Source: Candidatus Avelusimicrobium luingense (GTDB lineage: Bacteria > Elusimicrobiota > Elusimicrobia > Elusimicrobiales > Elusimicrobiaceae). From it: 32,000 nt of DNA. Numbering within the stretch: the stretch's first letter is position 1; the number at the start of each line of letters is the position of its first letter. The notes under the pieces were generated by a model. That model searched no databases. It was given only the letters and a program-made list of their open reading frames with translations, and was not told the origin of the DNA. Location of the stretch: contig OOHK01000001.1 in assembly GCA_900315845.1 (NCBI GenBank), positions 262,791 to 294,790 of the forward strand. The letters run 5' to 3'. Shown piece after piece: positions 3,045 through 18,886 of this stretch. Both the position numbers and the translations under genes were made by a program.

Positions 3045-3829
3045 TGCATCCCACACTACTTACCATCGGTTCGTTTGAACTTGCCAGTTACGGCGTGATG
3101 ACTGCGCTAGGCTATGGGATAGCGTCGTATTATCTGGTACGGCGGCTGCCTAAAAATTTGGACAAAGATACTTTTTGGAATTTAATTTTTATTTTATTTA
3201 TGGGGGCACTCGTCGGGGCAAAATTATTATTTATTGCGTTGACGTGGCCGCAGTTAAACGGAAGCACTTGGGAAAAAATCTCGTATTTCGTGCAAAATTT
3301 TCGGTATGGGTTTGTGTTTTACGGTGGACTTATCGTAGCGGTAGCCGCGGTAATTACTTACATGAAAAAGAAAAAATTACCGTTACTTGCTACATCCGAT
3401 TTTATTATTACCGCCTTACCGCTCGGACATGCATTCGGGCGCGTGGGCTGTTTCTTAGCGGGCTGTTGCCACGGCAAACCTACCACTATGCCTTGGGGAG
3501 TTACATTCACCGATCCGCACGCTATGGTTGCGCCCGATTTACTCGGTGTACCCGTACACCCCGTACAACTTTACGAAGCCGTCGGCAATTTGCTGATTTT
3601 CTTTATTCTGCATAAACTTTACAACCACCCGCATAAAAACGGCACCGTACTTTTAGCGTATATTTTTTGTTACGGTACGTTACGTTTTGCATTAGAATTT
3701 TTCCGCGGAGATTTTCGCGGAGCGTATTTATTCGGGCTTTCCCCGGCGCAGATTATTACCTTGTTACTTGCGTTAAGTGCCGGCGTAATTTGGTGGCGTA
3801 TTACTAAAAAAGGACAATCTCATGGCTGA
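3044..3829 (+). CDS. lgt: prolipoprotein diacylglyceryl transferase
   Basis: 261 aa polytopic protein with GRVGCFLAGCCHG and HPVQLYEA motifs typical of Lgt. The ATG overlaps the upstream stop by 1 nt (TAATG). Confidence 0.9.
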   Translation: MHPTLLTIGSFELASYGVMTALGYGIASYYLVRRLPKNLDKDTFWNLIFILFMGALVGAKLLFIALTWPQLNGSTWEKISYFVQNFRYGFVFYGGLIVAVAAVITYMKKKKLPLLATSDFIITALPLGHAFGRVGCFLAGCCHGKPTTMPWGVTFTDPHAMVAPDLLGVPVHPVQLYEAVGNLLIFFILHKLYNHPHKNGTVLLAYIFCYGTLRFALEFFRGDFRGAYLFGLSPAQIITLLLALSAGVIWWRITKKGQSHG

Positions 3830-4727
3830 TAAAAAAACGATTATTTTCGACGGATATTCTAAACGCTTGGACGTATTTGTGGCGGACGAGTTGGAAAATT
3901 TGTCGCGCTCGCTCGTGCAAAAGTTAATCAAAGACGGGCACGTTACCGTCAACGGTAAACAAGTAAAACCGTCCTGGCCGCTCACAGCAGGTGAAACAGT
4001 AACGATTGAATTACCGGATGCACACAGCCAAACCAAACTAAAAGATTTAATTATTCATGACGGAAAAGATTTCTTTGCGTTGATAAAGCCCGCAGGCATG
4101 CTGGTCCACCCGCAAAGCCCCATTTGGGAAGAACACCCCGAAACGGTTTTCTCGTCGGAAGAAACGCTGGTATCTGTTATTTTGGCCAATCCCCCCAAAG
4201 GGTTTGATACCAACATGCCGCGCGCCGGACTTGTCCACCGGTTAGACCGCGAAACAAGCGGTGTGATGATTGTAGCCAAAACGCAAGAATTTCAAGCGGA
4301 AATGATTGCACAGTTTGCCGCGCGCGACGTACACAAGACATATCACGCGATTGCGTGTGGAACCGTGCCAGACGATGAAGGCACGATTGATGTGCCGATA
4401 GGGCGCGTAGCCGGCGGAAAAATTAAAGCATCCGACGTAGGGCGCGAAGCCGTAACCGATTACAAAGTATTAGAGCGCAAAAACGGTTTTACCTATATTG
4501 AACTGTATCCGCGTACCGGCCGCACCAACCAGTTGCGTGTACACTTAAATTGGCTGGGTTACCCGGTGCTGGGCGATTGGCTGTACGAAGGGGCCACGGC
4601 AGATCGGCTCATGCTCCATGCCCGGCGCATTGAATTTACCCATCCGCTAACGGGGAAAAAATTAAAATTTGAAGCCCCCGTCCCCCCCGACTTTTTAGCC
4701 GCATGGGAACGTGTAACCGGGAAATAA
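3822..4727 (+). CDS. rluD: RluA/RluD-family 23S rRNA pseudouridine synthase with N-terminal S4 domain
   Basis: 301 aa. S4-like N-terminus (RLDVFVADEL...SRSLVQKLIKDGHVTVNG), catalytic motif HRLDRETSGVMIVAK. Overlaps lgt by 8 nt. Confidence 0.88.
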   Translation: MADKKTIIFDGYSKRLDVFVADELENLSRSLVQKLIKDGHVTVNGKQVKPSWPLTAGETVTIELPDAHSQTKLKDLIIHDGKDFFALIKPAGMLVHPQSPIWEEHPETVFSSEETLVSVILANPPKGFDTNMPRAGLVHRLDRETSGVMIVAKTQEFQAEMIAQFAARDVHKTYHAIACGTVPDDEGTIDVPIGRVAGGKIKASDVGREAVTDYKVLERKNGFTYIELYPRTGRTNQLRVHLNWLGYPVLGDWLYEGATADRLMLHARRIEFTHPLTGKKLKFEAPVPPDFLAAWERVTGK

Positions 4728-4750
4728 TAAATTCTCTTATATAAACAAAA

Positions 4751-4790
4751 AAATCTTCCCCGTTTGAATAAACAGGGAAGATTTTTATAT
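4751..4790. terminator. bidirectional rho-independent terminator between convergent genes
   Basis: Stem aaatcttccc (4751-4760) / gggaagattt (4775-4784), flanked by an A-run and a T-run. Confidence 0.8.
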
Positions 4791-4801
4791 ATTCCTAACC
4801 G

Positions 4802-5560
4802 TTAGCGCACGGCTTTGGCGTTTTTACTCATTAACGCGTTTAATTGGGTTTGTTGTTTGAGCATGATATCTTTAGCCGATGTAACAAAATCTTCATACGT
4901 AGGGCTTTTAGCCGCAATATCTTTTAATTTCTGCTCATTTGTATTGATAATAGCCATGGCTTGATTTCCCACTTTCGCACTAAAGATACTGTTTACGGAG
5001 GCCAATGTTTCGCCGTTTTCATCTTGCACTTTTTCTAAATACTGTTTCATTTGTTCAATGTCTTTAGCGGGCGCAATTCCTTTCAAATCATCCATTACAA
5101 TAATACCAACCACCGACGGTAATTCTTGTTCTTTTTTCTTGGAAACTTTTTTAACAGCAGGCGCTTTTTGGCGTTCTTTTTGCAAGGCTTTCCCGGCACG
5201 CGAAAGTAAATTTTCCGAGTATCCCACAAAAACCTGTTCCCCCACGATAAGCACCGGAACACCGCCGTCCAAATTATGTTTTTTGCGCATGCGGGCAAAT
5301 TGCTGGCGGCCTTGCGGCGTGTGCACTTCATATTCTTCTAATACCACTTGTCCCGCATATTTCTTGCTAAATTTGGCGGAGAAACCTTCTTGCTTTAATT
5401 TGCGGCACCACGGACATCCGTCCGATAAAAACAAATACGCTTTAACGGCTTGCTTATCTTCTTGCGGCACCGCCACGAAAGAAGACACCGCCGCACTTTG
5501 GCTATTGGCTGCTACCAATAAGCCAATTACGAATATAACTCTAACAATTATTTTTTTCAT
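4802..5560 (-). CDS. exported thioredoxin/glutaredoxin-fold protein (CPWC) with long helical C-terminal domain
   Basis: Start moved to ATG 5560 (MKKIIVRVIFVIGLLVAANSQSAA signal peptide). The tracked 5680 start adds 40 implausible residues. CPWC redox motif in FLSDGCPWCRKLK. The C-terminal half is K/E/Q-rich and helical. Confidence 0.75.
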   Translation of the reverse strand: MKKIIVRVIFVIGLLVAANSQSAAVSSFVAVPQEDKQAVKAYLFLSDGCPWCRKLKQEGFSAKFSKKYAGQVVLEEYEVHTPQGRQQFARMRKKHNLDGGVPVLIVGEQVFVGYSENLLSRAGKALQKERQKAPAVKKVSKKKEQELPSVVGIIVMDDLKGIAPAKDIEQMKQYLEKVQDENGETLASVNSIFSAKVGNQAMAIINTNEQKLKDIAAKSPTYEDFVTSAKDIMLKQQTQLNALMSKNAKAVR

Positions 5561-5673
5561 ATTGTATATGATAACAAACTCTTTTCTCATGCACAAGATA
5601 AATAATGCTAAACAACGACTTATTTTAATATAGTAAAATATACTCCAACATCGTCGGGCCGAAAAGCCCACCC

Positions 5674-5701
5674 TTGACAAGTCAAAAAAAAAAACGATAA
5701 T
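5674..5701 (+). promoter_or_regulatory. sigma70-like promoter of pilin-like gene 1 with A11 tract in the spacer
   Basis: TTGACA (5674-5679), 16-nt spacer agtc-A11-c, GATAAT (5696-5701). AAGGAG SD at about 5722, ATG at 5735. Confidence 0.6.
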
Positions 5702-5734
5702 AGAGTATCAGAACAAATAACAAGGAGCAAAAAT

Positions 5735-6289
5735 ATGGCAAATACAAAAGCATTTACGTTAATAGAATTATTAGTAGTCGTTTTAATCATTGGTATTTTA
5801 GCCGCCGTGGCCTTGCCGCAATACCAAAAAGCGGTGGAAAAATCACGCGCGGCTCAAGCATTAACCCTTCTTAAATCGGTTTCGCAAGCAGCCGAAGCGT
5901 ATTTTATGGCGAACGGAACGGAATTTAGGTCGTTTGACGAATTGTCGTTAGATATCCCATGGCCCGCGGGCACACGCGTTATCGGCGGCTCGCAAGATAC
6001 CAAATCAAACGGGGAATGGGCCTTAGAAATTGAAGATTCCAGTTCTTCCGGTTGGACGGTCCTGTTTATGACACGTTTGCAAGGCAAATATCAAGGTGCC
6101 GGTTTCCAAATCGGGATACGCGGGCCTGACGGGCATGTGGGCGGTTCCGTCCCCGGTTGTTTTGAACGGAAAACGGCCTCCACCAAAACTTTTGATTCTT
6201 CATTAACACCCGGAGCCTATTGCACACAAATTATGAAAGGAACCTTGTCTGATGAAAGCCAATGGGGACGCTCCTATCGTTTGCCCTAA
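5735..6289 (+). CDS. prepilin-type N-terminal cleavage/methylation domain protein (type IV pilin/pseudopilin-like), paralogue 1
   Basis: 184 aa. [42 protein letters not shown] is a class III signal peptide plus the conserved hydrophobic alpha1 helix (Glu at +5). The C-terminal part is paralogous to 24037..24606. Confidence 0.92.
   Translation: MANTKAFTLIELLVVVLIIGILAAVALPQYQKAVEKSRAAQALTLLKSVSQAAEAYFMANGTEFRSFDELSLDIPWPAGTRVIGGSQDTKSNGEWALEIEDSSSSGWTVLFMTRLQGKYQGAGFQIGIRGPDGHVGGSVPGCFERKTASTKTFDSSLTPGAYCTQIMKGTLSDESQWGRSYRLP
5750..5850 (+). repeat. dispersed ~100-bp conserved pilin 5' cassette, copy 1
   Basis: Roughly 80% DNA-level similarity, judged by eye, to 18021..18120 and 24481..24577 (both reverse orientation). 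Confidence 0.7.
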
Positions 6290-6324
6290 TCGTGTAAAAT
6301 ATACAAGTTGACCGGAACATAGCA

Positions 6325-6364
6325 AACGTCCGTAAAAGTGAACACTTTTACGGACGTTTTGTTA
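6325..6364. terminator. rho-independent terminator (pilin gene 1 / hydA convergent)
   Basis: Stem aacgtccgtaaaagtg / cacttttacggacgtt followed by TTTTGTT. Confidence 0.8.
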
Positions 6365-6391
6365 TACTAAACTTAACACCCGTCGTTATTC

Positions 6392-8131
6392 TTATTTCTT
6401 TTGGCCGGTGCGGTCTTTGCGGTCAAAGTAGTGCGTATGCAACAGTTCATGCGCTTTATGTCCGCCGATTTTATCAAAGATGGTGCCATACAACGCCATC
6501 ACATCTTTGTTATCTTGGGACTTATACGCCATCTTTGCATCGTCTTCATACAATCCGGCCGCGCGGTTCTTGCGGGCTTGCCAACCTTCAAATTGGGGTT
6601 GTCCGGCACCTGCCACACAACCGCCTTGGCAAGACATGACTTCAATAAAGTCGTATTTATTCTTTCCGGCTTTAATGTCGTCCAAGAGTTTGCGCGCGTT
6701 TTTGAGTCCGCTTACTACCGCCACGCGCACCGTTTTGCCCGCGATGGTGAGTTCGGCTTCTTTGACAGTGCTGTTAGCACGCAAGACACTTAAATCTAAT
6801 TTGCCAGCGCCTTTGGGGTCAAGTTCGGCCGCGGCAAAGCGTAAGGCCGCTTCCATAACACCACCCGACGCACCAAAGATAACACCCGCACCGGTTTTGG
6901 TACCGAACGGATGATCAAATTCTTCGTCTTGGAGGTTCGCAAAATCAATGCCGGCTTCTTTAATCATGCGCGCCAAACCGACGGTCGTGACCACATGGTC
7001 CGTATCCGGGTTGCCGTTGACATAGAATTCTTCGCGTTTGACTTCGCCTTTTTTGGCCGAGCACGGCATAATCGCTACGACCACGAGATCTTCGCGTTTG
7101 CCGCCTTTTTCCACGAAATCGGCTTTGATAACCGGGCCCATCATCTGCATCGGCGAGCGGGCCGTAGAAAGATTGGGGATAAATTCCGGCGTAAATTTTT
7201 CTACATAATTTACCCACGCCGGGCAGCAACTGGTAAGTTGCGGCATATTTTTACCTTCGGTGAAACGATGTAAAAATTCGGTGGCTTCTTCCACGATTGT
7301 TAAGTCAGCGGCGAAGGCCGTATCGTACACGTAATCAAACCCTAACAAGCGTAAAGCCGCGGCGATTTTTCCGTCAATGCTTTTGCCTTGCGGCAAGCCG
7401 AAAATTTCGCCCAAACCTACACGCACCGCAGGAGCGATGTGTACGGCTACTTTTTTAGCCGGGTTATTGATTTCTTTAAATACTTGTTCAATTTCGCTGT
7501 TGTTCGGCGTTAAAGCACCTACCGGGCAAACGCGCGCACATTGACCGCAGGACACACATTCGTGGCTTTCACCCATGCCTTTATCAAAAGCAGGGGTAAT
7601 TTTAGCACGGTATCCGCGGAACGCAAAATCAATGGCACCGATACCTTGTACTTCGTTGCAGATGCGTACGCAGTTACCGCACAAAATACATTTGCTGTTA
7701 TCGCGTACCAAGGCAGCAGAGGAAGTATCACGCACCGTTTCTTTTTGTTTGGCTTTGAAGCGGATTTCCGTAATACCCATTTCTTGGGCTAAACTTTGGA
7801 GTTTGCAGCGGCCCGATTTGGAGCAGAGCGTGCAGTTGTGATTACCGGACGCCAATAAGAGTTCCAAGTTGATGCGGCGCAAGCGGCGGATTTCATCGGT
7901 ATTGATGTGTACTTTCATCCCCGCACGCGGTGCTACACAACACGAGGCCACAACGCCCATACCTTCTACTTCTACCAAGCACAAGCGGCATGCACCGTAA
8001 ATTTCCAATTCCGGCTGATAGCAGAACGTGGTAATATTGAAACCCGCTTTGCGGATTAGTTCCAATAAATTCCGTTCGCCTTCAATGGCTACATTTTTTC
8101 CTTCAATAGTAACAAAGTTTTCTTTTTCCAT
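6392..8131 (-). CDS. hydA: [FeFe] hydrogenase catalytic subunit (HydA of a trimeric NADH/ferredoxin-type HydABC)
   Basis: 579 aa. N-terminal 2Fe-2S-type and multiple 4Fe-4S Cys motifs (CILCGNCVRIC, CVSCGQCARVCP). H-cluster signatures TSCCPAW, MPCSAKKGE, EVMSCQGGCVAGAGQP. AAGGAA SD. Confidence 0.95.
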   Translation of the reverse strand: MEKENFVTIEGKNVAIEGERNLLELIRKAGFNITTFCYQPELEIYGACRLCLVEVEGMGVVASCCVAPRAGMKVHINTDEIRRLRRINLELLLASGNHNCTLCSKSGRCKLQSLAQEMGITEIRFKAKQKETVRDTSSAALVRDNSKCILCGNCVRICNEVQGIGAIDFAFRGYRAKITPAFDKGMGESHECVSCGQCARVCPVGALTPNNSEIEQVFKEINNPAKKVAVHIAPAVRVGLGEIFGLPQGKSIDGKIAAALRLLGFDYVYDTAFAADLTIVEEATEFLHRFTEGKNMPQLTSCCPAWVNYVEKFTPEFIPNLSTARSPMQMMGPVIKADFVEKGGKREDLVVVAIMPCSAKKGEVKREEFYVNGNPDTDHVVTTVGLARMIKEAGIDFANLQDEEFDHPFGTKTGAGVIFGASGGVMEAALRFAAAELDPKGAGKLDLSVLRANSTVKEAELTIAGKTVRVAVVSGLKNARKLLDDIKAGKNKYDFIEVMSCQGGCVAGAGQPQFEGWQARKNRAAGLYEDDAKMAYKSQDNKDVMALYGTIFDKIGGHKAHELLHTHYFDRKDRTGQKK

Positions 8132-8142
8132 AATTTAATTCC

Positions 8143-10026
8143 TTACGCGCCGATTTTTACTGCGCCGAATTTACATGTAGATTTGCAACTACCGCATTTG
8201 ATACATTTTTTCGGATCAACCACATGCGGTTTGCCTACTGCCCCGGAAATGGCTTGTACCGGGCAGGCGCGTTTGCACATGCCGCAACCTTTACATTTGG
8301 CGGGGTCAATTTCGTACTTGGCAAGCGCTTTACATACGCCGGCGGGGCAGCGTTTTTCTACCACGTGGGCGAGATATTCATCCTTAAAGTATTTCAAGGT
8401 AGAGAGCACCGGGTTGGGGGCCGTTTTACCTAAAGCGCACAGCGAAGATTTTTGTACGGCTTTGGCTAAATCTTCCAACGTTTCCAAGGTTTTCATCGTA
8501 CCGCGGCCTTCGCAAATGTCGGTAAGTAAGGATAACATTTGGTCGGTTCCTTCGCGGCAAGGCACGCATTTTCCGCACGATTCGCGTTTGGTAAATTCCA
8601 AGAAGAAGCGGGCCACGTTGACCATACAGGTTTTTTCGTTCATAACCACGAGTCCGCCCGAACCGATCATCGCACCGGCTGATTTTAACGAATCAAAATC
8701 AAGCGGTACATCATAATGTTCTTTGGTCAAGCATCCGCCAGAAGGACCGCCGATTTGGGCGGCTTTGAATGCTTCGGGATTGACGGTACCGTCGCTGTTG
8801 GTCGTACCGCCGGCCACGTCGTTAATTACTTGGCGCAAGGTCGTACCCATAGGCACTTCCACGAGCCCCGTATTGGCGATGTGTCCCGTTACAGCAAACG
8901 TTTTGGTACCCGGGCTGGTCGGCGTACCGATCTTGGCAAATTTTTCGGCACCCATTTCAAACACTTTGGCTACGGTAGCCAACGTTTCTACGTTGTTAAT
9001 AACGGTGGGTTTACCGAAAAGACCACTGTGGGCCGGGAACGGCGGTTTAACTTTAGGCATACCGCGTTTCCCTTCTACAGAAGCGATTAAAGCGGTTTCT
9101 TCCCCACAGACAAACGCTCCCGCGCCTTCCATGACGTTAATTTTGAAATTCTTGCCGGAACCGAAGATGTTTTCACCTAAAATACCCAATGCTTCGGCTT
9201 CTTCAATGGCTTTGCGCACCCGTTTAATGGCGAGCGGATATTCCATACGAACATAGATGTATCCTTCATCCGCCCCGATAGCGCGCGCGGCAATCATCAT
9301 ACCTTCCAAAACGGCGTTGGGGTTACCTTCCATAACGGAGCGGTCCATAAAGGCACCCGGGTCCCCTTCGTCAGCGTTGCAGATAACGTATTTTTTGCCT
9401 TCCGGTTCAATGCGGGCAAATTCCCATTTTTTACCGGTAGGGAAACCACCGCCGCCGCGTCCGCGAAGACCCGATTTAATCATTTCTTGGCAGACTTGTT
9501 CGGGGGTCATTTCCAAATAGACGCGTTTGGCTTGAGCATAACCGCCGTGAGCGATATATTCATTGATATCTTCGGGGTTGATGCGTCCGCAATCGGCGAG
9601 CAAAATGCGTTGTTGTTTAGCATAAAACGGAATTTCGGCTACGGTTTTGGACTTTTGGTTATTGGCCGGATTGTGATATAACAAGCGGTCAATGACTTCG
9701 CCTTTGAGCAAGGTTTTTTCAATAATTTCCGGAACGTCGGCTGCTTTTACTTTGGTGTAGAAAATATCGCCCACGCTCACGAGCGGCCCTTGTGCACAGA
9801 AACCGCGGCAACCGCTTAAACTTAAATAGTTTTCACGGCAACCTTTGGAAACTTCTACACTGCACGCGATACCGCGTTTTTCCATTTCCGTTTGGAACGC
9901 CTTATATACATCCAGCGAACCGCCGGCAATACAACCGGTACCGCCGCAAATGACGATACGGTTTTTAATATTTTTATAGGCATCATTAAAATCTTTTGCG
10001 ATTTTTTCAATATCTTTCGTTGCCAT
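8143..10026 (-). CDS. hydB: NuoF-like flavoprotein subunit of [FeFe] hydrogenase (HydB)
   Basis: 627 aa. N-terminal thioredoxin-like Fe-S domain, NADH/FMN region GRGGGGFPTGKKW, C-terminal 2x[4Fe-4S] motifs (CKGCGMCKRACP, CIKCGSCKSTC). Confidence 0.93.
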   Translation of the reverse strand: MATKDIEKIAKDFNDAYKNIKNRIVICGGTGCIAGGSLDVYKAFQTEMEKRGIACSVEVSKGCRENYLSLSGCRGFCAQGPLVSVGDIFYTKVKAADVPEIIEKTLLKGEVIDRLLYHNPANNQKSKTVAEIPFYAKQQRILLADCGRINPEDINEYIAHGGYAQAKRVYLEMTPEQVCQEMIKSGLRGRGGGGFPTGKKWEFARIEPEGKKYVICNADEGDPGAFMDRSVMEGNPNAVLEGMMIAARAIGADEGYIYVRMEYPLAIKRVRKAIEEAEALGILGENIFGSGKNFKINVMEGAGAFVCGEETALIASVEGKRGMPKVKPPFPAHSGLFGKPTVINNVETLATVAKVFEMGAEKFAKIGTPTSPGTKTFAVTGHIANTGLVEVPMGTTLRQVINDVAGGTTNSDGTVNPEAFKAAQIGGPSGGCLTKEHYDVPLDFDSLKSAGAMIGSGGLVVMNEKTCMVNVARFFLEFTKRESCGKCVPCREGTDQMLSLLTDICEGRGTMKTLETLEDLAKAVQKSSLCALGKTAPNPVLSTLKYFKDEYLAHVVEKRCPAGVCKALAKYEIDPAKCKGCGMCKRACPVQAISGAVGKPHVVDPKKCIKCGSCKSTCKFGAVKIGA

Positions 10027-10028
10027 AC

Positions 10029-10505
10029 TTATTTGGCCTCCGCTTTGAGGACTTCGTCAATGAGTTCTTCGGCTTTGGCCGGAGTCACTTGACCGTGGAC
10101 AACTTCGTCCACCACCATTACCGGGGCCAACCCGCACGCCCCTAAACAGGAAACGCATTCCAATGTAAAAAGTAAATCTTCGGTCGTTTCTTGTCCGTCT
10201 TTAAGTTTAAGTTTCTTTTTGACAGCGTCAATAATGCCGGCCGAACCTTTTACGTGGCAAGCCGTCCCGTTGCAAACGCGGATAATGTGTTTGCCTTTGG
10301 GGGTAATAGCGAAATGGGCAAAAAACGTCGCCACGCCAAATACTTTAGCGGGCGAAATTTTGAGTTCGTTAGCAATATAACGCATGATATCTTCCGGAAG
10401 GAAGTGGTAGGCATCTTGCACTTTTTGCAAGATGGGAATTAACTTGGCGCTATCGTAATTATTTTCTTTTAAGATTTGCGCCGCGGGTGCGAATCTATCT
10501 GACAT
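10029..10505 (-). CDS. hydC: NuoE-like [2Fe-2S] subunit of [FeFe] hydrogenase (HydC)
   Basis: 158 aa. CNGTACHVKG ... CVSCLGACGLAP Cys pattern of the NuoE/HydC family. AGGAGA SD. Its stop lies 2 nt before the hydB start. Confidence 0.9.
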   Translation of the reverse strand: MSDRFAPAAQILKENNYDSAKLIPILQKVQDAYHFLPEDIMRYIANELKISPAKVFGVATFFAHFAITPKGKHIIRVCNGTACHVKGSAGIIDAVKKKLKLKDGQETTEDLLFTLECVSCLGACGLAPVMVVDEVVHGQVTPAKAEELIDEVLKAEAK

Positions 10506-10552
10506 AAGTTCTCCTATAGAAGTTTACTACAAAAACAAATCGTTAGTTCATT

Positions 10553-10571
10553 AAGACGGAAAAACCGTCTT
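10553..10571. terminator. short hairpin between the membrane-protein gene and hydC (weak terminator or RNA-stability element)
   Basis: Stem aagacgg / ccgtctt with a 5-nt A loop. The T-run follows only on the plus strand. Confidence 0.3.
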
Positions 10572-10577
10572 TTCTTA

Positions 10578-11642
10578 TTATAGCAAAATACACAGGGCAA
10601 TAAAATAGCCCCCCATAAGCAGTAATCCGGTCGGTACGGCTACACGCGCCCATTCACGGCTTTTGATACCCAGTTTTTCAGCCGCTACAATGTTGGGCAA
10701 ATTACCCTGCACGAGCATACTGCCAAAGGCCGCCAATCCGATAACCATATACGTTAAATCGGTCGGGGAAATGGTAGGCACAATTTCAATTGCGGCAAGC
10801 GTAGCGTTATCAATGATAACCGACACCGCATTGGCAAAAAACAGTATTTTCCCGCCGAGATGGGCTATCGTACTTTGGGCCAGCGGCCGCAAGCCCGTGC
10901 TAATTAAATGCAACGCCGCCACGAACATATAAATATGCCAAGTACGACGTAAAACGGAACTGTATGTTTCTTTATCTTCCCGGATATACATTTGCAACCC
11001 CGTGCCGGCATGACGCGCAGTATATCCGGCGGCTATCGCCAATACGGCCACCCCGGGTAATATCCAACCGGCAAAATGGCGTAAGGCAAAAAAGAAATCG
11101 GCATTATAAGGTGGTTCGGAAAGCGCCTGTTTCATCACAAGGCCCATCGGTTCGGCCAGTGGGGTGAGTACGGCGCCTAACCCAATGGCATAGCAGGCAA
11201 AAACCGTAATAAAAACCGTTTGGCGGTGCTCCAAATTAACCACTTTTAACACTTCGGCCAACACGAGCGCCGACACCGTCACGCTTACTAAAGACGACGA
11301 CAAACCCAACACAAAAATCAGTAATGCAAAACTATAGCGCGGCTCCAAGGCCTTAAAAAAGGTAAATAATACGCGAAAAATATAGCGTGAGTAATTATTA
11401 AAAATCACACTGACAACTAATACAATAAAGGCTACATTGACCGGATATTTTAAGGTTTCGTAGAGAAAATCAACACTCCACCCCCCACTGACGGTAACGG
11501 CCGTTGCCCCTACGCTAAGTAAAAAAATTTCCAAGTGGCTTTCTACCCATCTTGACGTAAGCGGCCAAACGAGCAAATTTATGACGATAATTCCTAACAA
11601 TATATTTACCCACAATGGGGTTTGTGCAACTACAGTTTCCAT
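10578..11642 (-). CDS. polytopic integral membrane protein, transporter-like (possibly DUF1646-type putative cation transporter)
   Basis: 354 aa with about 10 hydrophobic segments and no soluble domain. The family assignment is from memory of length and composition only. Confidence 0.6.
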   Translation of the reverse strand: METVVAQTPLWVNILLGIIVINLLVWPLTSRWVESHLEIFLLSVGATAVTVSGGWSVDFLYETLKYPVNVAFIVLVVSVIFNNYSRYIFRVLFTFFKALEPRYSFALLIFVLGLSSSLVSVTVSALVLAEVLKVVNLEHRQTVFITVFACYAIGLGAVLTPLAEPMGLVMKQALSEPPYNADFFFALRHFAGWILPGVAVLAIAAGYTARHAGTGLQMYIREDKETYSSVLRRTWHIYMFVAALHLISTGLRPLAQSTIAHLGGKILFFANAVSVIIDNATLAAIEIVPTISPTDLTYMVIGLAAFGSMLVQGNLPNIVAAEKLGIKSREWARVAVPTGLLLMGGYFIALCILL

Positions 11643-11749
11643 AGATATATTTTACTAAATTGACGGAAATAACGCAGAAAAACACATAAATTTAGTACAA
11701 TAAAAAGGTAGAAAAAATCTATTGCAAATTACAAAGGAGAAAAATCAGC

Positions 11750-12403
11750 ATGAAAAAAATTATTGCTTTATTTGCGGTATGTGGTTTAGCCGCTGTTGCC
11801 GCGTATGCCGATGATTGCGGATGCGCCTCGATGGACGTTACCTGTGTAAACAACTGCACGTTGTCTAAAATTAGCAACTTGCGCAAAAATGTTCAAGCAC
11901 AAAAAGCGGCCGCAGCCAAAAAAGTAAAAGCCGTTAAAGCCCAACAACAAGCCGCTCAAAACAATTCTGCGGTAGAAGACGTTAAAGCCCAAGCCAAGGC
12001 TAAAAAAGAAGAATTAAAAGCCAACGCTCAAGCCCGCAAAGAAGAGGCCAAACAACAAGCCGCGGCCAGAAAAGCCCAAGCCGAACAAGCCAAAGCCGAC
12101 GCTAAAGCCCAAGCCAAACAAGCCAAGGCCGATGCTAAAGCCAAAGCCGAACAAGCCAAGGCTGAAGCTAAAGCCCAAAAAGAACAAGCCAAAGCCCAAG
12201 CCAAAGCACAAAAAGCAGCCGCTAAGGCTCAAGCCGAACAAGCCAAAGCCGACGCTAAAGCCAAAAAGGCCGAAGTAAAAAACAACGTCAAAAACGCTAA
12301 AGCCGATGTAAAAGCCAAAAAAGCGGAAGTCAAACAAACCGCCAAAGATGCTAAACAAGCGTTCAAAGACGAACAAAAAGCGTGGAAAGAATTAGCCAAA
12401 TAA
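11750..12403 (+). CDS. secreted low-complexity Ala/Lys/Gln-rich repeat protein
   Basis: 217 aa. Signal peptide MKKIIALFAVCGLAAVAAYA, Cys cluster DDCGCASMDVTCVNNC, then about 150 aa of AKA(D/E/Q)AKA(Q/K)A(E/K)Q 11-mers. AAGGAG SD. Confidence 0.8.
   Translation: MKKIIALFAVCGLAAVAAYADDCGCASMDVTCVNNCTLSKISNLRKNVQAQKAAAAKKVKAVKAQQQAAQNNSAVEDVKAQAKAKKEELKANAQARKEEAKQQAAARKAQAEQAKADAKAQAKQAKADAKAKAEQAKAEAKAQKEQAKAQAKAQKAAAKAQAEQAKADAKAKKAEVKNNVKNAKADVKAKKAEVKQTAKDAKQAFKDEQKAWKELAK
12068..12290 (+). repeat. 33-bp (11-codon) periodic tandem repeat inside the CDS
   Basis: Recurrent gccaaagccgacgctaaagcc(c/a)a units. Protein register: AEQAKADAKAQ / AKQAKADAKAK / AEQAKAEAKAQ / KEQAKAQAKAQ. Confidence 0.75.
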
Positions 12404-12422
12404 GTTAATTCAAATTCACTTT

Positions 12423-12454
12423 AAAAAACCCCCGGCCGCAAGCCGGGGGTTTTT
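12423..12454. terminator. bidirectional rho-independent terminator
   Basis: A6 - cccccggc / gccggggg stem - T5, between convergent genes. Confidence 0.85.
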
Positions 12455-12471
12455 ATTGTAAGAAGTATGAC

Positions 12472-13578
12472 TTATAAGTCTTTTTGATACACACGGTAGC
12501 GTTTATACAGGTGGCAACCGCATTCTTCTATGCCGCGAATCATCCCGGCGTTATCTTCTAACACCCACGAAAGTTCGGCCGCGTTCCATACGGCTACCCC
12601 GTGGGTAACGATATGCTTAATTAAAATTAAATCAAGACCGCGTTTTCTAAATTCCGGCATCACACCCAGCATAATCAGCCGCGCATCCTTAATATGTTTC
12701 CACGCCCACAAGGCTTTTAACACGCGCCACGGATTTTTCAAACTTCCGCGCAAAATTTTAAGCACGTGATTCATATTGGGAATACAAATATAAAAGCCGG
12801 CCGGAACACCGTTTTCTTCAATAACGCAAGTGCCTTCTATGCGGATAATGGGTTTTAATTCTTTGACGATATCGGCCATCCCTTGTTTGGTTAACGGCAC
12901 AAATCCCCAATTTTCGGCCCATGCGGCATTGTAAATCTTGCGGATGATTTCGGCTTCTTCGTCAATGTTTTTCAAATTCAAACGGCGCAGCGTAATGCCT
13001 TTGGCGCGTTCACACCGGGCACACACTTTCAAAAACCGCTCGGAAAAGACATCGTCTTTGGTGCGGTAAAACGCCAACAAATCTTTTACTTTTGTTAAAC
13101 CGGCCTTTTCTATTAAACCCGCGTAATAGGCAAAATTGTACGGCATCATAATGGCGGGCATACTGTCAAAACTATCTACGAGCAGTCCGTAGACGTGATT
13201 GCTGGACGGATTAGCCGGGCCGCGCATTTTTTCTACGCCTTGTTTTTTGAGCCAACCTTGTGCGGCTTGAAATAAAGCAGAAGAAACTTTCTCATCGTTA
13301 ATTGAGTCAAAAAATCCGAAGAATCCGATATTTTCTTTATGATATTCGTTGTGCGCACGATTGACAAGCGCCATAATGCGCCCGACGGGTTTTTCCCCCT
13401 CATACGCCATAAAAAGCGCGCGCGAAGCAGACGCCCAAAATGGGTTTTTTTCATCCAATAAATGCCGGGTATCGGCTTTTAATTCCCCCACCCAATACGG
13501 ATTATCTTTATATAAGGTAAAGGGGAACTCAATAAAGGCGTTTAATTCTGCCGGGGAAGAAATTTCTTTAATCTGCAT
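12472..13578 (-). CDS. GNAT-fold N-acyltransferase-like protein (two-lobed, 368 aa)
   Basis: The C-terminal lobe has GNAT motif-A-like LGVMPEFRKRGLDLILI. The N-terminal lobe is MQIKEISSPAELNAFIEFPFTLYKDNPYWV. No closer family call is possible by eye. Confidence 0.65.
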   Translation of the reverse strand: MQIKEISSPAELNAFIEFPFTLYKDNPYWVGELKADTRHLLDEKNPFWASASRALFMAYEGEKPVGRIMALVNRAHNEYHKENIGFFGFFDSINDEKVSSALFQAAQGWLKKQGVEKMRGPANPSSNHVYGLLVDSFDSMPAIMMPYNFAYYAGLIEKAGLTKVKDLLAFYRTKDDVFSERFLKVCARCERAKGITLRRLNLKNIDEEAEIIRKIYNAAWAENWGFVPLTKQGMADIVKELKPIIRIEGTCVIEENGVPAGFYICIPNMNHVLKILRGSLKNPWRVLKALWAWKHIKDARLIMLGVMPEFRKRGLDLILIKHIVTHGVAVWNAAELSWVLEDNAGMIRGIEECGCHLYKRYRVYQKDL

Positions 13579-13591
13579 AATTTTCGTAAAG

Positions 13592-13617
13592 AAAAACCCC
13601 GCACAAGGCGGGGTTTT
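13592..13617 (-). terminator. intra-cluster hairpin (terminator/attenuator) between the SPT-like and GNAT-like genes
   Basis: ccccgc / gcgggg stem with a 5-nt loop, flanked by an A-run and a T-run. It lies about 12 nt upstream of the GNAT-like ATG. Confidence 0.55.
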
Positions 13618-13628
13618 GACAATCTATA

Positions 13629-14819
13629 TTATTTAATAATACCAATCGCGCGGCCCGCTTGTGCAAAAGCGTCCACGATTTTTTGGACATGTTCATCCGT
13701 ATGTGTCGCCATCAAGGTCAAACGCATCAGTGCGTGTCCGGGCGGCACCGCGGGACTAATGACCGGGTTAGCGAAAATGCCCAGTTCATGCAACGCACGC
13801 CACATCTTAAAGCAGTTTTCATTACTACCGACGTGGACGGGCAAAATCGGCGTAGTGCTGGTGCCCAAATCGTAGCCCAAATCTTCCAGGCCTTTTTTGA
13901 GTTTCGCCGTCAAACGGAACAGATTATCGCGCCGTGACGTATCGTTTTCAATCAGTTCCAACGCTTTTGTAATAGAAGCAATACAAGACGGCGGCATAGA
14001 AGCCGAGAAAATCTGACTGCGTGCGTTGTGACGCATATAGTGGATAACATCTTCATCGCCCACCACAAATCCGCCGACCGTAGCAAACGTTTTAGAGCAG
14101 GTACCGACGATTAAATCTACTTCACCGTTTTCCAAACCGAAATACTCGCACGTACCGCGCCCCGTTTTACCGATAATACCCGTAGCATGCGCGTCATCTA
14201 CCATAATACGCGCACCGTATTTTTTACCGATTTTAACAATATCGGGTAGCGGGCAAATATCCCCTTCCATACTAAACACGCCATCTATAATAATCAGTTT
14301 TCCGGCATCGGCGGGGATTTTAGCCAACACACGTTCCAAATCGGCCATATCGTTGTGCTTAAAGCGAACCATTTCGCCTTCGGACATTTTAACACCGTCC
14401 AAAATGCTGGCATGGTCTAATTTATCCACAATAGCATAGTCACCTTTTTTCATTAAGCACGACACGACACCTAAATTCATTTGATAACCTGTGGCGAATA
14501 AAAGTCCGGCTTGTTTGCGTTTGAATTGGGCTAATTTTTTCTCTAAATTATCGGCGAGTTTTGTGTTTCCGTTGAGTAAGCGAGATCCGGCCACACCGGT
14601 ACCGTATTTCTGCACCGCTTCCACAGCGGCTTTTTTCATCTCGGGGTCATTGGCTAAACCCAAATAGTTGTTAGAACCTGCCATGATATAGGTTTTGCCG
14701 TCTAAAATTACTTCCGGTCCTTGGGCCGATTCAATCGGTTGGAAATAGCCGTAAATGCCCATACGCATCGCAATTTTGGCGTCTTTGTAATTTCTGCACT
14801 TCTCAAAAATATCAGCCAT
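13629..14819 (-). CDS. PLP-dependent alpha-oxoamine synthase, serine palmitoyltransferase-like
   Basis: AOS-family motifs GSNNYLGL, GSRLLNGN, DHASILDG, DDAHATG and the PLP-lysine GTCSKTF. VRFKHNDMADLERVL, FSASMPPS and the C-terminal FAQAGRAIGIIK resemble my recollection of Sphingomonas SPT more than BioF or Kbl. I chose ATG 14819 (GAGAGGA SD 8 nt upstream); the tracked alternative is 14843. Confidence 0.85.
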   Translation of the reverse strand: MADIFEKCRNYKDAKIAMRMGIYGYFQPIESAQGPEVILDGKTYIMAGSNNYLGLANDPEMKKAAVEAVQKYGTGVAGSRLLNGNTKLADNLEKKLAQFKRKQAGLLFATGYQMNLGVVSCLMKKGDYAIVDKLDHASILDGVKMSEGEMVRFKHNDMADLERVLAKIPADAGKLIIIDGVFSMEGDICPLPDIVKIGKKYGARIMVDDAHATGIIGKTGRGTCEYFGLENGEVDLIVGTCSKTFATVGGFVVGDEDVIHYMRHNARSQIFSASMPPSCIASITKALELIENDTSRRDNLFRLTAKLKKGLEDLGYDLGTSTTPILPVHVGSNENCFKMWRALHELGIFANPVISPAVPPGHALMRLTLMATHTDEHVQKIVDAFAQAGRAIGIIK

Positions 14820-14851
14820 ACTGGTTATCCTCTCACAACGCATAAACTATG

Positions 14852-15316
14852 CTACTTGCTTACTTTTTTAATAATGTTTGTAGTAGAACGTCCTTTTAAC
14901 AAGGCAAAACGCACTACTTTTTTTGCAAATTCACGGCCGACAATTTCACTCGGCTTGTAATCTCCGCCCTTGACGAGCACGTCCGGGCAGACATTTTTAA
15001 TTAAATTATACGGCGTATCTTCGTCAAAAATACATACCGCACTCACGCTTTCCAAGGCGGCTAACACCAAGGCTCGGTCACTTTGCGTATTGACGGGACG
15101 AGTCGGGCCTTTCAAGCGGCGCACGGATGCATCACTGTTAAGCCCCACAATCAGCGCGTCGCCTTTGCTGCGCGCAAACTCTAATACGCTGACATGTCCG
15201 GCATGTAAAATATCAAAACAACCGTTAGTAAAAACGATTTTTTGCCCTTTTTTACGGGCATTTTCTACCCACGTTTTTAACTGACGCGGCCCTAAAATTT
15301 TACTTTTTGCTTTCAT
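14852..15316 (-). CDS. hldC: D-glycero-beta-D-manno-heptose-1-phosphate adenylyltransferase (RfaE domain II / HldC-like cytidylyltransferase fold)
   Basis: [34 protein letters not shown] nucleotidyltransferase HxGH motif. I chose ATG 15316 (overlaps accC by 17 nt); the tracked 15337 start is a TTG. Confidence 0.85.
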
Positions 15317-16679
15317 CTTCTTTAAGCATCCGTTCAATAAATCCCGTATCGGTATTTCCGGTAATAAAATCGGGGTTATTTAAAATTTTCTGATGAAAGG
15401 GGATCGTCGTTTTTATACCGCTAACCGTAAATTCTTTCAAACACCGGCGGCTGCGCGCTAACGCGCGGGCGCGGTCGGGCGCGGTAACAATCAGTTTGGC
15501 AATCAAACTGTCGTAATACGTCGGGATTGCGTAGCCTGTATAAACGTGGCTATCCAAACGAACGCCTAATCCGCCGGGTAATGTCCATTGGCTAATCGTA
15601 CCGGGACAAGGAGCGAAATTGTGTTCGCTGTCTTCGGCATTAATGCGGTGTTCGATGGCGTGGCAGTTAATAACGCTGGCTTCTTTTTGGGTAAGCGGCA
15701 ACTTTTCACCTTGTGCCAGTTGAATTTGTAATTTGACAAGGTCTTGCCCACATACTTCTTCCGTTACCGGGTGCTCCACTTGCAAACGCGTATTAACTTC
15801 CATAAAATAAAATTCTTTCGTGGGTGCCATTAAAAATTCCACTGTTCCCACGCCGCGGTACGAGGCGGCTTTGACGAGTTTGCATGCGGCTTCTTGCAAT
15901 CTCACGCGTGTTTGTTCATCTACGAACGGTGAGGGCGATTCTTCCACGAGTTTTTGGTGGCGGCGTTGCAAACTGCAATCACGTTCGGCAAAGGCAACGA
16001 CGTTTCCATAATTATCGGCAGCCACTTGCACTTCAATATGGCGCGGATTCAAAACGAGTTTTTCAAAATACATCCGATCGTCGCCAAAGTTAGCACGCGC
16101 TTCGGCCTGCGCGGTTTTAAGCATACGGTCTAAATCTTCTTCTTTATAACACGCGCGCATACCTTTTCCGCCGCCGCCGAGCGCGGCTTTAATCATCAGC
16201 GGAAAACCGATTTTGCGCGCTACTTCTTTGTAATTTTTACCGACGACGCCATCAGATCCGGGTGTTACCGGCACGCCGGCTTTTACCGCCATGGCTCGCG
16301 CGGTGGCTTTTTCGCCCAAGTGGGCAATAGATGTAGCATCCGGCCCGATAAAGGTAAGCCCCGCAACAGCAACAGCGTTGGCAAATTCGGCATTTTCCGA
16401 TAAAAACCCATACCCCGGGTGAATTGCATCGGCGCCGGTAAGTTTCGCGGCCGTTAAAATAGCATCTATATTTAAGTAACTTTGCAACGACGGGGCGGCC
16501 CCAATGCAAACGGCTTCGTCGGCCAAACGCACATGCAAACTATTGCGGTCGGCTTGTGAATAAACAGCCACCGATTGGATATTCATTTCTTTTAAGGTGC
16601 GGATAATACGAAGGGCAATCTCGCCGCGGTTAGCGATAAGCACTTTTTGAAACGGAGTAATTTTCAAATCGCTCGCCAT
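15300..16679 (-). CDS. accC: acetyl-CoA carboxylase biotin carboxylase subunit
   Basis: 459 aa. ATP-grasp motifs GGGGKGMR and [15 protein letters not shown]. The ATG follows the upstream stop directly (TAAATG). Confidence 0.95.
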
Positions 16680-17063
16680 TTATTTCTCCTGCGGCTCAAT
16701 AAAAAATAGCGGCAACCCAAACTCTACCACATTGCCTTCCTGCGCGGCTACTACACGTAATTTACCGGTAACGGGCGCCGTGATTTTATGTTTTTTAGAA
16801 AAAGTTTCCACAATACCTAACGGAGCACCTTTCTCAATGATTTGGCCTTCGGTAAGTGTAAGATTTTGGCCTTTTTCGGCGGCGTGATAAATGCCAACCG
16901 CCGGCGACGTTACCGCGCTAAGCGAGCAAGCAAATTGCGCCGGTTCGGGTAATGCTTCTTGCGTTTTAATTTCAATAGAATCGCCATTGTTTTCATAACA
17001 AAATTCGGCTAAATCGGTAGTTTTAAGCCAGTCGGTTACTTCTCTAATTAGTTTAGTATCCAT
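16680..17063 (-). CDS. accB: biotin carboxyl carrier protein-like protein with non-canonical biotinylation site
   Basis: 127 aa. The C-terminal biotinyl/lipoyl-type domain aligns with AccB (SPAVGIY..., ...VEFGLPLFFIE), but the E-A-M-K-M position reads E-T-F-S-K-K. AAGGAA SD. Confidence 0.8.
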   Translation of the reverse strand: MDTKLIREVTDWLKTTDLAEFCYENNGDSIEIKTQEALPEPAQFACSLSAVTSPAVGIYHAAEKGQNLTLTEGQIIEKGAPLGIVETFSKKHKITAPVTGKLRVVAAQEGNVVEFGLPLFFIEPQEK

Positions 17064-17187
17064 ATGGTTTCCTTAGTACATCTATAAAAAATACTTATGA
17101 TTATTTTACCATTTTTTTACCGTTTCGGGCCGAAACTAATACTTTTTTCCCCTTTACGAAAGTTAGTGAAAAATTTACCATACCCCT

Positions 17188-17649
17188 ATGAACATACTTT
17201 CTTTGATTAAATTAGTAGTTTGGTTAGCGATTTGCCAATTACCCGGCATAGTAGGAGTATCCTATGTCTTTAACAATATGACGTGGTACCGTTCTTTGAT
17301 GCACCCAACGTTCTCCCCGCCCGAAGCGGTGTTCGGCGTTATGTGGAGTGTATTATATATTCTGTTGGGAATCAGTGCGTTTTTAACATTTCGCGAAAAA
17401 TTACACGGCCGGGCAATGATGCTGTTTGTGTTGCAACTGGCCTTAAACGCGTGTTGGACGCCGGTGTTTTTCGGCGCGCATAGTTTGTTGGGGGCCCTTG
17501 TGTTGATTGTTGCCATGCTGATTGCGCTGGTTTTTTTGTTTCGCGCCTTGTGGCCCATTAGCCGCGTAGCCGCCTGGCTACTTGTACCGTATGGATTATG
17601 GCTTGCTTTTGCTACTTATTTAACCGCCGCTACTTGGTGGATGAATTAA
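17188..17649 (+). CDS. tspO: TspO/MBR family tryptophan-rich sensory protein
   Basis: 153 aa with 5 TM segments. WYRSLMHPTFSPP, ALNACWTPVFFG and LVPYGLWLAFATYL motifs. Confidence 0.9.
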   Translation: MNILSLIKLVVWLAICQLPGIVGVSYVFNNMTWYRSLMHPTFSPPEAVFGVMWSVLYILLGISAFLTFREKLHGRAMMLFVLQLALNACWTPVFFGAHSLLGALVLIVAMLIALVFLFRALWPISRVAAWLLVPYGLWLAFATYLTAATWWMN

Positions 17650-17650
17650 C

Positions 17651-18148
17651 CTATAACGAACCCGTAGCCGATAATTGCTGACACAATTTGCGTTGGATAG
17701 CCGTAGCCGTTCCATTAGGATAGGCAGAGCAATCCACGCGATTTGGGGAGTTGGGCATCACAAAAATATAATACACATCCCCACTTCCATTTTGAGCGAC
17801 ATGTTGGGCAACTGCCAGTTGTGCTCCTCCGTCACCTGAAGGCGAATAAATAAAATATTTCGTTTGGATACGTTTGCCACCCAAGCTCGTAGTAAGAGAG
17901 CCGGGCACCTCTATATCCAATAATTCCATTTCATCTTGCGTAGCATATCGTCCGTTGGCCATATAAAAAGCCTGATTGGCGTTAGCAATCGTCCGCACCA
18001 TAGTAACCGCTTCCGTCATACGCGCTTTTTCCACCGCTTTTTGATATTGTGGTAAAGCCACCGCCGCTAAAATACCGATAATCAAAACTACTACCAATAA
18101 TTCTATTAACGTAAAACCGCCTAAACGGCCCGACATTTGTTTTTTCAT
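17651..18148 (-). CDS. prepilin-type N-terminal cleavage/methylation domain protein (pilin-like), paralogue 2
   Basis: 165 aa. [55 protein letters not shown]. Confidence 0.92.
18021..18120 (-). repeat. dispersed pilin 5' cassette, copy 2
   Basis: Shares long identical runs with copy 3 (for example gctaaaataccgataatcaaaac on the plus strand). Confidence 0.7.
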
Positions 18149-18188
18149 ACTTTTGCTCCTTATTTGTCAAAATATTCCGACAAACAAA

Positions 18189-18216
18189 ATCTTAACAAAA
18201 AAAAAAACGATGTCAA
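18189..18216 (-). promoter_or_regulatory. sigma70-like promoter of pilin-like gene 2 with T11 tract in the spacer
   Basis: Read on the minus strand: TTGACA (18216-18211), 16-nt spacer tcg-T11-gt, TAAGAT (18194-18189). Confidence 0.55.
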
Positions 18217-18243
18217 GTAAAACTTTTTCCGACGAAGAAATAC

Positions 18244-18273
18244 AAAAAAAGAACCCCCCGGATTAACCGGGGG
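18244..18273 (-). terminator. rho-independent terminator of the DUF948-like gene
   Basis: Minus strand: cccccgg-ttaat-ccggggg followed by ttcTTTTTTT. Confidence 0.8.
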
Positions 18274-18304
18274 CTCTGTTACAAGTAGTGAATAATTAGG
18301 TAAT

Positions 18305-18565
18305 TTATTTCTCTTTGTGGAAATGCCGAAATATCTCCATTCCCGTTTTAGCAACCTTAAATATTCCCGAATCTAAAAACGAGGACACATTGTCCAAAAG
18401 CACAAACGTGCTTTGCGTTTTATCCACTTTTTCCGCCGTGGAAATGGCCAAATACTCTACGGCTTGTGCCGTATGTAAAATTTGAATCAGCGTGCGAATC
18501 GCAAAAATGACGAGTACCACAAAAGCCACTACGGCCACGAGTACACAACCTTGGTATAAATCCAT
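18305..18565 (-). CDS. small N-terminally anchored membrane protein (DUF948-like)
   Basis: 86 aa. N-terminal TM VLVAVVAFVVLVIFAI followed by a helical segment. Strong SD AAGGGGGA. Confidence 0.65.
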   Translation of the reverse strand: MDLYQGCVLVAVVAFVVLVIFAIRTLIQILHTAQAVEYLAISTAEKVDKTQSTFVLLDNVSSFLDSGIFKVAKTGMEIFRHFHKEK

Positions 18566-18597
18566 AAGTTTTCCCCCTTATATAATAAGTTTCTTAC

Positions 18598-18626
18598 ATT
18601 TAATCAGTTTGCGCTGGGAACGTCAA
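18598..18626 (-). promoter_or_regulatory. candidate promoter of the DUF948-like gene
   Basis: Minus strand: TTGACG (18626-18621), N17, TTAAAT (18603-18598). Confidence 0.4.
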
Positions 18627-18668
18627 GCCCTTATTTTGCCTATTTTTTCGCTAAAATACTAAATTATA

Positions 18669-18706
18669 TTGACAAACATTTCTTTATTAGTAATAATTAC
18701 TAATAA
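18669..18706 (+). promoter_or_regulatory. candidate nrdD promoter overlapped by a perfect 23-bp palindrome (operator-like)
   Basis: TTGACA 18669-18674 and an A/T-rich -10 (TAATAAT) at about 18691-18697. Palindrome ttattagtaat-a-attactaataa spans 18684-18706. Confidence 0.4.
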
Positions 18707-18886
18707 GCAAAAAACAGCAAAAAAAAGAGTTGGCACATAAAAAATAATTTTTTCCCGACGGAAATAACTTTTTTATACAGTTGTCACAAATTATTCTATC
18801 GTCGTAATTTGCATTTTTTGTTTGTTTTTGTCAAAATCTTAAGAGCCGCGACTTATCCGCGGACATTTTTACCTAGGAAGACATTT

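Follow-up and report, generated by a model that had tools for sequence, protein, structure and literature searches.

Two genes for type IV pilin-like proteins in Candidatus Avelusimicrobium luingense are each preceded by a predicted promoter whose spacer, between the -35 and -10 hexamers, holds an unbroken run of eleven A:T pairs, and the same predicted -35/tract/-10 layout is found in 33 related promoters. Both genes lie in the 32,000-nucleotide stretch of DNA analysed here, referred to throughout as the window. Slipped-strand changes in tract length, and with it in spacer length, probably tune or switch the transcription of these pilins in the manner of the Mycoplasma vlp and Neisseria porA and opc genes, and we are most likely dealing with a known type of stochastic expression dial in a new bacterial group.

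The first-pass annotation read site 1 as TTGACA-agtc-A11-c-GATAAT, with the tract occupying 11 positions of a 16 nt spacer, and direct reading bears this out (spacer 5680-5695). It also pointed to a second pilin paralogue of the same architecture with a T11 tract, which is indeed present on the minus strand at 18216-18189 in the order TTGACA-tcg-T11-gt-TAAGAT (spacer 18195-18210, 16 nt). Compared with the sigma-70 consensus, the hexamers have 11/12 matches at site 1 and 10/12 at site 2. The two sites rank first and third of 31 in a promoter scan of positions 4500-19500, which was scored by the E. coli consensus on the assumption that it holds for Elusimicrobia. The last T of the site-2 tract is also the T of a TGn motif, which is absent from the site-1 promoter, and at both sites a Shine-Dalgarno sequence and an ATG follow 20-45 nt downstream of the promoter (Table 1).

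Table 1. Predicted promoter elements, tracts and genes at the two sites (window coordinates)
Feature	Position	Strand	Basis
-35 hexamer TTGACA, pilin-1 promoter (A-type)	5674..5679	+	direct reading
Spacer bases agtc, site 1	5680-5683	+	direct reading
A11 homopolymer (AAAAAAAAAAA), site 1, candidate hypermutable element	5684..5694	+	direct reading
Spacer base c, site 1	5695	+	direct reading
-10 hexamer GATAAT, site 1	5696..5701	+	direct reading
Shine-Dalgarno AAGGAG, 7 nt before pilin-1 ATG	5722..5727	+	direct reading
Pilin-like gene 1, 184 aa, leader MANTKA/FTLIELL, ATG at 5735	5735..6289	+	ORF list, Pfam
Hairpin ACGTCCGTAAAAGT-gaac-ACTTTTACGGACGT then T run, between pilin 1 and convergent FeFe-hydrogenase gene	6326..6363		direct reading
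-35 hexamer TTGACA, pilin-2 promoter (T-type)	18211..18216	-	10/12 consensus matches with -10
T11 homopolymer (TTTTTTTTTTT; A11 on plus strand), site 2	18197..18207	-	direct reading
-10 hexamer TAAGAT after TGt (extended -10)	18189..18194	-	promoter scan
Shine-Dalgarno AAGGAG of pilin gene 2	18161-18156	-	direct reading
Pilin-like gene 2, 165 aa, leader followed by FTLIELL	17651..18148	-	ORF list, Pfam

The statement that these are the only two 11 nt homopolymers in 32 kb also proved correct, and they are in fact the only runs of more than 8 nt, the next longest being 8 nt. Extrapolation of the run-length decay seen in the window predicts ~0.18 runs of A or T with at least 11 nt (Poisson P for two or more, ~0.015), and a first-order Markov model is more lenient, with an analytic estimate of about 0.8, so that two such runs are in themselves only mildly unusual. 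Their placement is not chance: they lie inside the spacers of near-consensus promoters, two of the three best matches in positions 4500-19500, they precede paralogous pilin genes, and the arrangement recurs in related genomes.

Both products begin with a short basic leader and continue with FTLIE, in which Glu occupies position +5, and with a hydrophobic helix at the N-terminus, and both score above the Pfam cut-off for N_methyl (29.7 bits against 21.2 for pilin 1); they are 58% identical to one another across the N-terminal 83 aa. Pilin 1, in which position -1 is Ala and not Gly, matches PilA chains in the PDB (e.g. 8tum, E=7e-11), the match extending to residue 115 for 8tum and covering the N-terminal helix only for the others. 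Its homologues come from rumen and gut metagenomes, and those that carry a name are type IV pilins of Ca. Avelusimicrobium. The hairpin and T run beyond pilin gene 1 are likely to form a terminator, and since they separate the gene from the convergent FeFe-hydrogenase gene, pilin gene 1 is predicted to be monocistronic. A third pilin-like paralogue, on the minus strand at 24037-24606 (189 aa, leader followed by FTLIELL), lies downstream of a tRNA gene and its terminator and has neither a homopolymer nor an obvious consensus promoter upstream. The remainder of the window is taken up by housekeeping genes (hydrogenase, NuoF-like, NrdD, ValRS, biotin carboxylase, TspO), with no pilus machinery genes in its 32 kb; the tRNA at 24879-24965 (minus strand) is the sole Rfam match, and there is none at the tracts or the pilin leaders.

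The wider survey covered 312 kb, made up of the window and 19 loci of Elusimicrobiaceae MAGs among the matches listed for a scan of genomes with a three-pilin alignment, a listing in which the window's own species does not appear, and the controls were 856 kb of loci from other phyla among the matches listed for the same scan. Of the 40 pilin-like genes in the Elusimicrobiaceae loci listed, 18 are preceded by a run of at least 9 nt that lies no more than 130 nt from the start codon. Such runs are strongly concentrated near pilin genes: of the 29 in the 312 kb of loci listed, 21 precede a pilin N-terminal motif by 200 nt or less. The binomial P for this is 2e-27 if these regions are taken at their actual 2.6% of the sequence, and still 2e-9 if they are generously allowed 20%; among the other eight, four are placed to drive pilin genes with hairpin-repeat insertions or truncations and two to drive genes for signal-peptide proteins, and two are unclear. 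Run-bearing pilin genes number 19/37 in the Elusimicrobiaceae and 1/97 in other phyla (Fisher P = 5e-12, loci listed), and the AT-rich control genomes alone give 0/30 pilin-motif genes with a run (Fisher P = 9e-7, loci listed). The sole control run is a poly-G of about 17 nt in an Akkermansia muciniphila MAG (L042:7033-7050), approximately 180 nt upstream of a pilin-like gene. Spacer-tract promoters with T12 at L022:8343-8354 and L023:6634-6645 precede two non-pilin signal-peptide genes (MKKILLALLAVGCFLPIYSQ… and MKRLFIFSLLLLSSAAYAKNK…), and the tract-in-spacer design is thus not strictly confined to pilins. Viral contigs gave no match for either of the two promoter classes described below. 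The metagenome pattern TTGACAANNCAAAAAAAAA was too loose, returning at least 120 stretches that were mostly unrelated, and among the metagenome matches listed for it L206 is the only true A-type pilin promoter.

The promoters fall into two classes. The A-type, CTTGACA-AnnC-A(10-12)-YGATAATA, is found at site 1, at its orthologue in a sister species, and at L018, L025, L027, L206, P0035 and P0061, with the -35 region of site 1 kept as CTTGACAA in orthologues and paralogues and the -10 region as YGATAATA throughout; L020 (TTGATT-ttc-A14-TAAAAT) has an A tract that is off this pattern. The T-type, TTGAC(N)-(N)YG-T(10-13)-G-N-TAnnnT, is found at site 2 and about 23 others; of these 24, 21 have a TGn extended -10 formed by the tract's final T and the G next to it. 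Within each class the core is kept between species, and the sequence upstream of the -35 hexamer is unalignable. To judge from these shared cores, each class has spread among paralogues and orthologues by descent. The argument in the first-pass annotation, that opposite orientations of the tract speak against simple promoter duplication, therefore stands in so far as there are two distinct classes, and does not extend to the spread of promoters within each.

None of the 33 distinct promoters has an interrupted tract, and the nearby spacer bases do vary (agtc, aacc, aatc and aagc; CG, TCG and AATG). The spacer is 16 nt in 19 of 26 automatically scored promoters, 17 nt in four, 15 nt in two and 18 nt in one, and is 16, 16, 16, 16 and 15 nt at the loci that came later. 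Longer tracts go with fewer fixed bases, so that 4+T10, 3+T11 and 2+T12, with 2 further bases in each case, add up to 16 nt, and because tract length in this way offsets the fixed bases, it would be the total spacer length that selection sees. Both the purity and the length of the tract thus appear to be under selection.

Read on the plus strand, both tracts of the window are A11, and an identical 16-mer, C-A11-CGAT, occurs at 5683-5698 and 18196-18211. The shared CGAT falls within the -10 region at site 1 (cGATAAT) and adjoins the -35 hexamer, on the other strand, at site 2 (TTGACATCG). Family-wide, GC-A(n)-CGAT is common to the reverse-complemented T-type (GC-A11-CGATGTCAA) and the A-type (AAGC-A11-CGATAAT), and one promoter class may be derived from the other through reuse or inversion of the tract core.

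Tract lengths could be compared between assemblies at seven loci with at least two assemblies each; the exact-protein look-ups on which the comparison is based collapse places with the same neighbours, leaving two to five alleles visible per locus and three for site 1. Site 2 has T11 in the window and in L010, T10 in L003 and L004, and T13 in L006, where the flanks carry SNPs. In the sister species, where the site-1 orthologue has the same hydrogenase gene beside it and a pilin with 78% identity, the tract is A11, A12 and A11, and P0035 has A10, A11 and A11. Site 1 itself is A11 in the window, in L001 and in L011 (the last with flank SNPs), and P0055 (T11 in three), P0061 (A11 in two) and P0097 (T11 in two) are likewise constant. 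Length polymorphism with conserved flanks is accordingly seen at three of the seven loci, the other four being monomorphic, and at none of the seven is there a substitution inside the tract. The expectation that lengths would vary across strains and MAGs is thus realized at site 2, the sister orthologue and P0035, and not in the three assemblies of site 1, for which it was put forward. These differences are between strains, and switching within a population is a separate matter; any homopolymer of 10-13 nt would, moreover, be somewhat variable.

Several independent metagenome contigs end or begin at or near tracts. Contig L007 stops 2 nt into the site-2 tract (1451-1461), L227 begins directly after one (1-35), and L225, L226 and L228 also start or end at or near a tract, breaks that are weakly consistent with repeat heterogeneity or with loss of coverage.

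The mechanism that we consider probable would start from the tract as a hypermutable mononucleotide repeat between the two hexamers of a strong promoter of sigma-70 type, predicted to drive a monocistronic type IV pilin-like gene. Both A11 and T11 are long enough to slip, given that mononucleotide repeats do so from about 8-9 nt upwards, and the genes behind the tracts encode surface-type products, namely type IV pilin-like proteins and the two signal-peptide proteins. Replication slippage would add or remove one or more A:T pairs and so shift the spacer length, which ranges from 15 to 18 nt among strains; the shift would change the distance and the rotational phasing of the hexamers, and with them the use of the promoter by RNA polymerase. 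Because about half of the many paralogues carry a tract of their own, a population would come to consist of cells with different pilin sets or doses, among which selection in the gut or rumen could pick variants. The 16 nt state is presumably the favoured, expressing one, since it usually dominates, and the 15 and 18 nt alleles at site 2 would be weaker. We infer that the predicted hexamers are a real promoter, that tract length alters transcription, that switching is frequent and reversible, and that it has adaptive value.

The two classes may respond to a change in spacing differently. An extended -10 (TGn) lessens reliance on the -35 hexamer in E. coli, and hence on spacer length, and because the T-type promoter has this motif, the output of site 2 may vary with spacer length in a graded rather than an on/off manner. 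The A-type promoter at site 1 should be more dependent on its -35 hexamer and on spacing, since it has no TGn.

A phase-variation switch was the central proposal of the first-pass annotation, and the location of the tracts in the spacer throughout the family, their purity and the length differences at three of seven loci all speak for it; the constancy of A11 in three assemblies of site 1, the very site proposed, and a spacer of mostly 16 nt do not. Known phase-variable promoter tracts often display broader on/off mixes among strains, and narrow lengths around one spacer value would be equally expected from a fixed, length-constrained element. Under that alternative an uninterrupted A:T tract, which is rigid and slightly overtwisted with a narrow minor groove, would be needed in the spacer, where it could set promoter strength or be recognized by a regulator or a nucleoid protein; the spacer would be held at 16 nt, and strain differences would be incidental slippage, mostly mildly deleterious. 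We regard this as unlikely, though by no means negligible. A spacer of mostly 16 nt is as compatible with a fixed promoter element as with a switch that has a dominant favoured state, and the compensation between tract and fixed bases in the roughly three-quarters of promoters that have 16 nt, the constancy of site 1, P0055, P0061 and P0097 across assemblies, and the exact flanks kept with the tract (CG or TCG before and G-N-TA after; C-A(n)-YGATAAT) would all be expected of such an element. However, a spacer that was simply A/T-rich, or of the form A(n)T(m), would have a similar geometry, yet none of the 33 promoters uses one, and a single interruption, which would stabilize the length if constant expression were favoured, is likewise never found. 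The tract can also point either way with respect to transcription, as the A-type and T-type show, and strand-specific recognition is therefore disfavoured, while alleles of 15, 17 and 18 nt persist as the consensus of whole populations.

It is a good deal less probable that the tract is a neutral passenger, a single ancestral homopolymer copied with the gene through duplication and gene conversion and without a role of its own. Paralogues do have near-identical N-terminal coding sequences and within-class core promoters, and cassettes have apparently been exchanged at the shared promoter (L010), as such copying would predict, but the tract is present in two independent promoter classes and is also found, in the same design, ahead of the two non-pilin secreted-protein genes. 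Tracts have moreover stayed pure across species whose pilins are 50-78% identical and in which adjoining bases and upstream sequence have diverged, in genomes that otherwise avoid long runs (the window maximum elsewhere being 8 nt).

That the tracts are an artefact or some other signal, be it a sequencing or assembly error, a terminator tail or a transcriptional-slippage site in the mRNA, is highly improbable: homopolymers are error-prone on some sequencing platforms, and a GC-rich hairpin precedes some T-type promoters (e.g. L017, L023 and L029), but the tracts are also present in independent assemblies of Illumina type that come from different studies. A terminator tail was rejected at site 2, where a separate terminator (18273-18255) serves the upstream DUF948 gene 50 nt ahead of the tract, and at site 1, where the neighbouring gene is divergent and no transcript therefore enters the tract as a T run. 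Transcriptional slippage was set aside since the tract, lying upstream of the -10 box, is untranscribed from the predicted promoter, and a run of Lys codons in an extended ORF since the ORF list has no in-frame upstream extension. That the tract controls the divergent 262-aa gene beside site 1 was likewise rejected, as no hexamers in that orientation surround it.

Among known systems, the closest in organization to the slippage-driven control proposed here is that of Mycoplasma hyorhinis vlp, a multigene surface family in which each copy has its own A:T spacer tract and switching is independent and combinatorial; a poly-A run reportedly lies in the -35/-10 spacer of each paralogue. Vlp products, however, are lipoproteins of a wall-less mollicute, with tracts of ~17-20 nt that span nearly the whole spacer and with switching and length dependence shown experimentally, whereas the Elusimicrobiaceae genes are type IV pilin-like, with tracts of 10-13 nt, fixed flanks and two orientations, and are known here from sequence alone. 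The Vlp system is among those listed in PMC11868660 (refs 20-21). Neisseria meningitidis porA and opc are comparable in that a homopolymer lies between the -35 and -10 hexamers of an outer-surface protein gene, but they are single genes of a pathogen with G:C tracts (poly-G in porA, poly-C in opc) and a wide documented spread of lengths among isolates, in contrast to the A:T tracts, many paralogues and narrow length spread of a gut and rumen commensal from another phylum. One-base changes in the porA and opc tracts are said to give high, intermediate or no expression. For these promoters PMC5084427 cites Sarkari et al. (1994).

The Helicobacter pylori sabA gene offers a parallel of another kind, an adhesin gene with a promoter poly-T and possibly graded output. 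Its tract is said to adjoin the -35 box and not to fill the spacer, and unlike the Elusimicrobiaceae pilins, sabA acts together with a coding CT repeat and encodes an outer-membrane adhesin. A single strain of H. pylori can harbour several lengths of the promoter poly-T (13-16 or 16-19 T), and a graded rather than all-or-none effect on expression is proposed for the tract (PMC2715451). That intergenic repeats can alter the spacing of promoter elements is established more generally (PMC5084427). In Haemophilus influenzae hifA/hifB and Bordetella fim2/fim3, as proposed here for pilins, transcription of fimbrial subunits is set by repeat-dependent promoter spacing. The fim2/fim3 repeat is reportedly a poly-C between an activator site and the -10 box. 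Both hif and fim differ from the Elusimicrobiaceae genes in specifying chaperone-usher fimbriae, and the hif dinucleotide is shared by two divergent promoters; the hifA/hifB TA repeats are those of van Ham et al. (1993), as cited in PMC5084427 and PMC11868660. No publication that connects the pilins of Elusimicrobia with repeats or with phase variation turned up in the literature searched. We know of no promoter-spacer repeats on type IV pilin genes elsewhere.

Elusimicrobia of animal guts have unusually many pilin-like genes, scattered among housekeeping genes, and if each gene has a stochastic dial, the expansion of paralogues makes sense as a repertoire for surface variation. On a bolder reading, which we put forward only tentatively, the gut and rumen Elusimicrobiaceae would have a lineage-wide pilin 'phasome', in which private hypermutable tracts on about half of the scattered paralogues, two promoter lineages of opposite tract orientation, and the swapping or loss of cassettes at a shared promoter combine to make pilus composition combinatorial, heritable and yet reversible, by analogy with Mycoplasma Vlp though with type IV pilins as its basis. 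With a dial on each gene, the repertoire could counter host immunity, phages that use the pilus as receptor or changing attachment substrates, and repeat-driven contingency loci, familiar from a few pathogens, would be known from an uncultured commensal phylum as well. Should the fixed structural element instead be the right account, the promoters would constitute a lineage-specific class with an obligatory A:T tract. The signature TTGAC-N(2-4)-T/A(10-13)-(TGn)-TAnnnT could be used to find such genes in metagenomes.

Some arrangements at the promoters themselves bear on the mobility of the pilin genes. At L010:931-975 the upstream flank of site 2 and TTGACATCG-T11 are followed by a promoter of the P0055 type, at L229:1-90 the P0055 pilin stands behind an unrelated upstream region, and at L005:1940-2023 there is no pilin after the DUF948 gene. 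This suggests that pilin cassettes are exchanged or lost between strains, with the shared promoter as the junction.

A conserved leader of about 150 nt is common to pilin-like paralogues that have no tract, among them P0005 (69% identical to pilin 1); it occurs at L015:2300-2510, at L019:9800-10010, 4600-4810 and 14750-14965, and ahead of the minus-strand pilin genes of L017. The leader has three mutually complementary boxes, ACAGCCGT, ACGGCTGT and ACAGCCGT followed by a T-run, in an attenuator-like arrangement. RNAalifold gives 39 pairs, 14 of them with compensatory changes, from only four sequences, and there is no match in Rfam. It is possibly a cis-regulatory RNA, as yet undescribed, that serves a second class of pilin genes.

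An inserted hairpin repeat resembling REP/MITE elements (…CGAGCGAGAG…GTCATCCCGCA-N-TGCGGGATGAC…) interrupts the stretch between the tract promoter and the start codon of pilin genes at L025:9700-9990, L033:3300-3470, L030:1480-1570 and 3090-3200, L018:3490-3560, L225:1-50 and L027:60-190. In some cases it lies within the region that encodes the leader peptide, where it lengthens or disrupts the N-terminus of the pilin.
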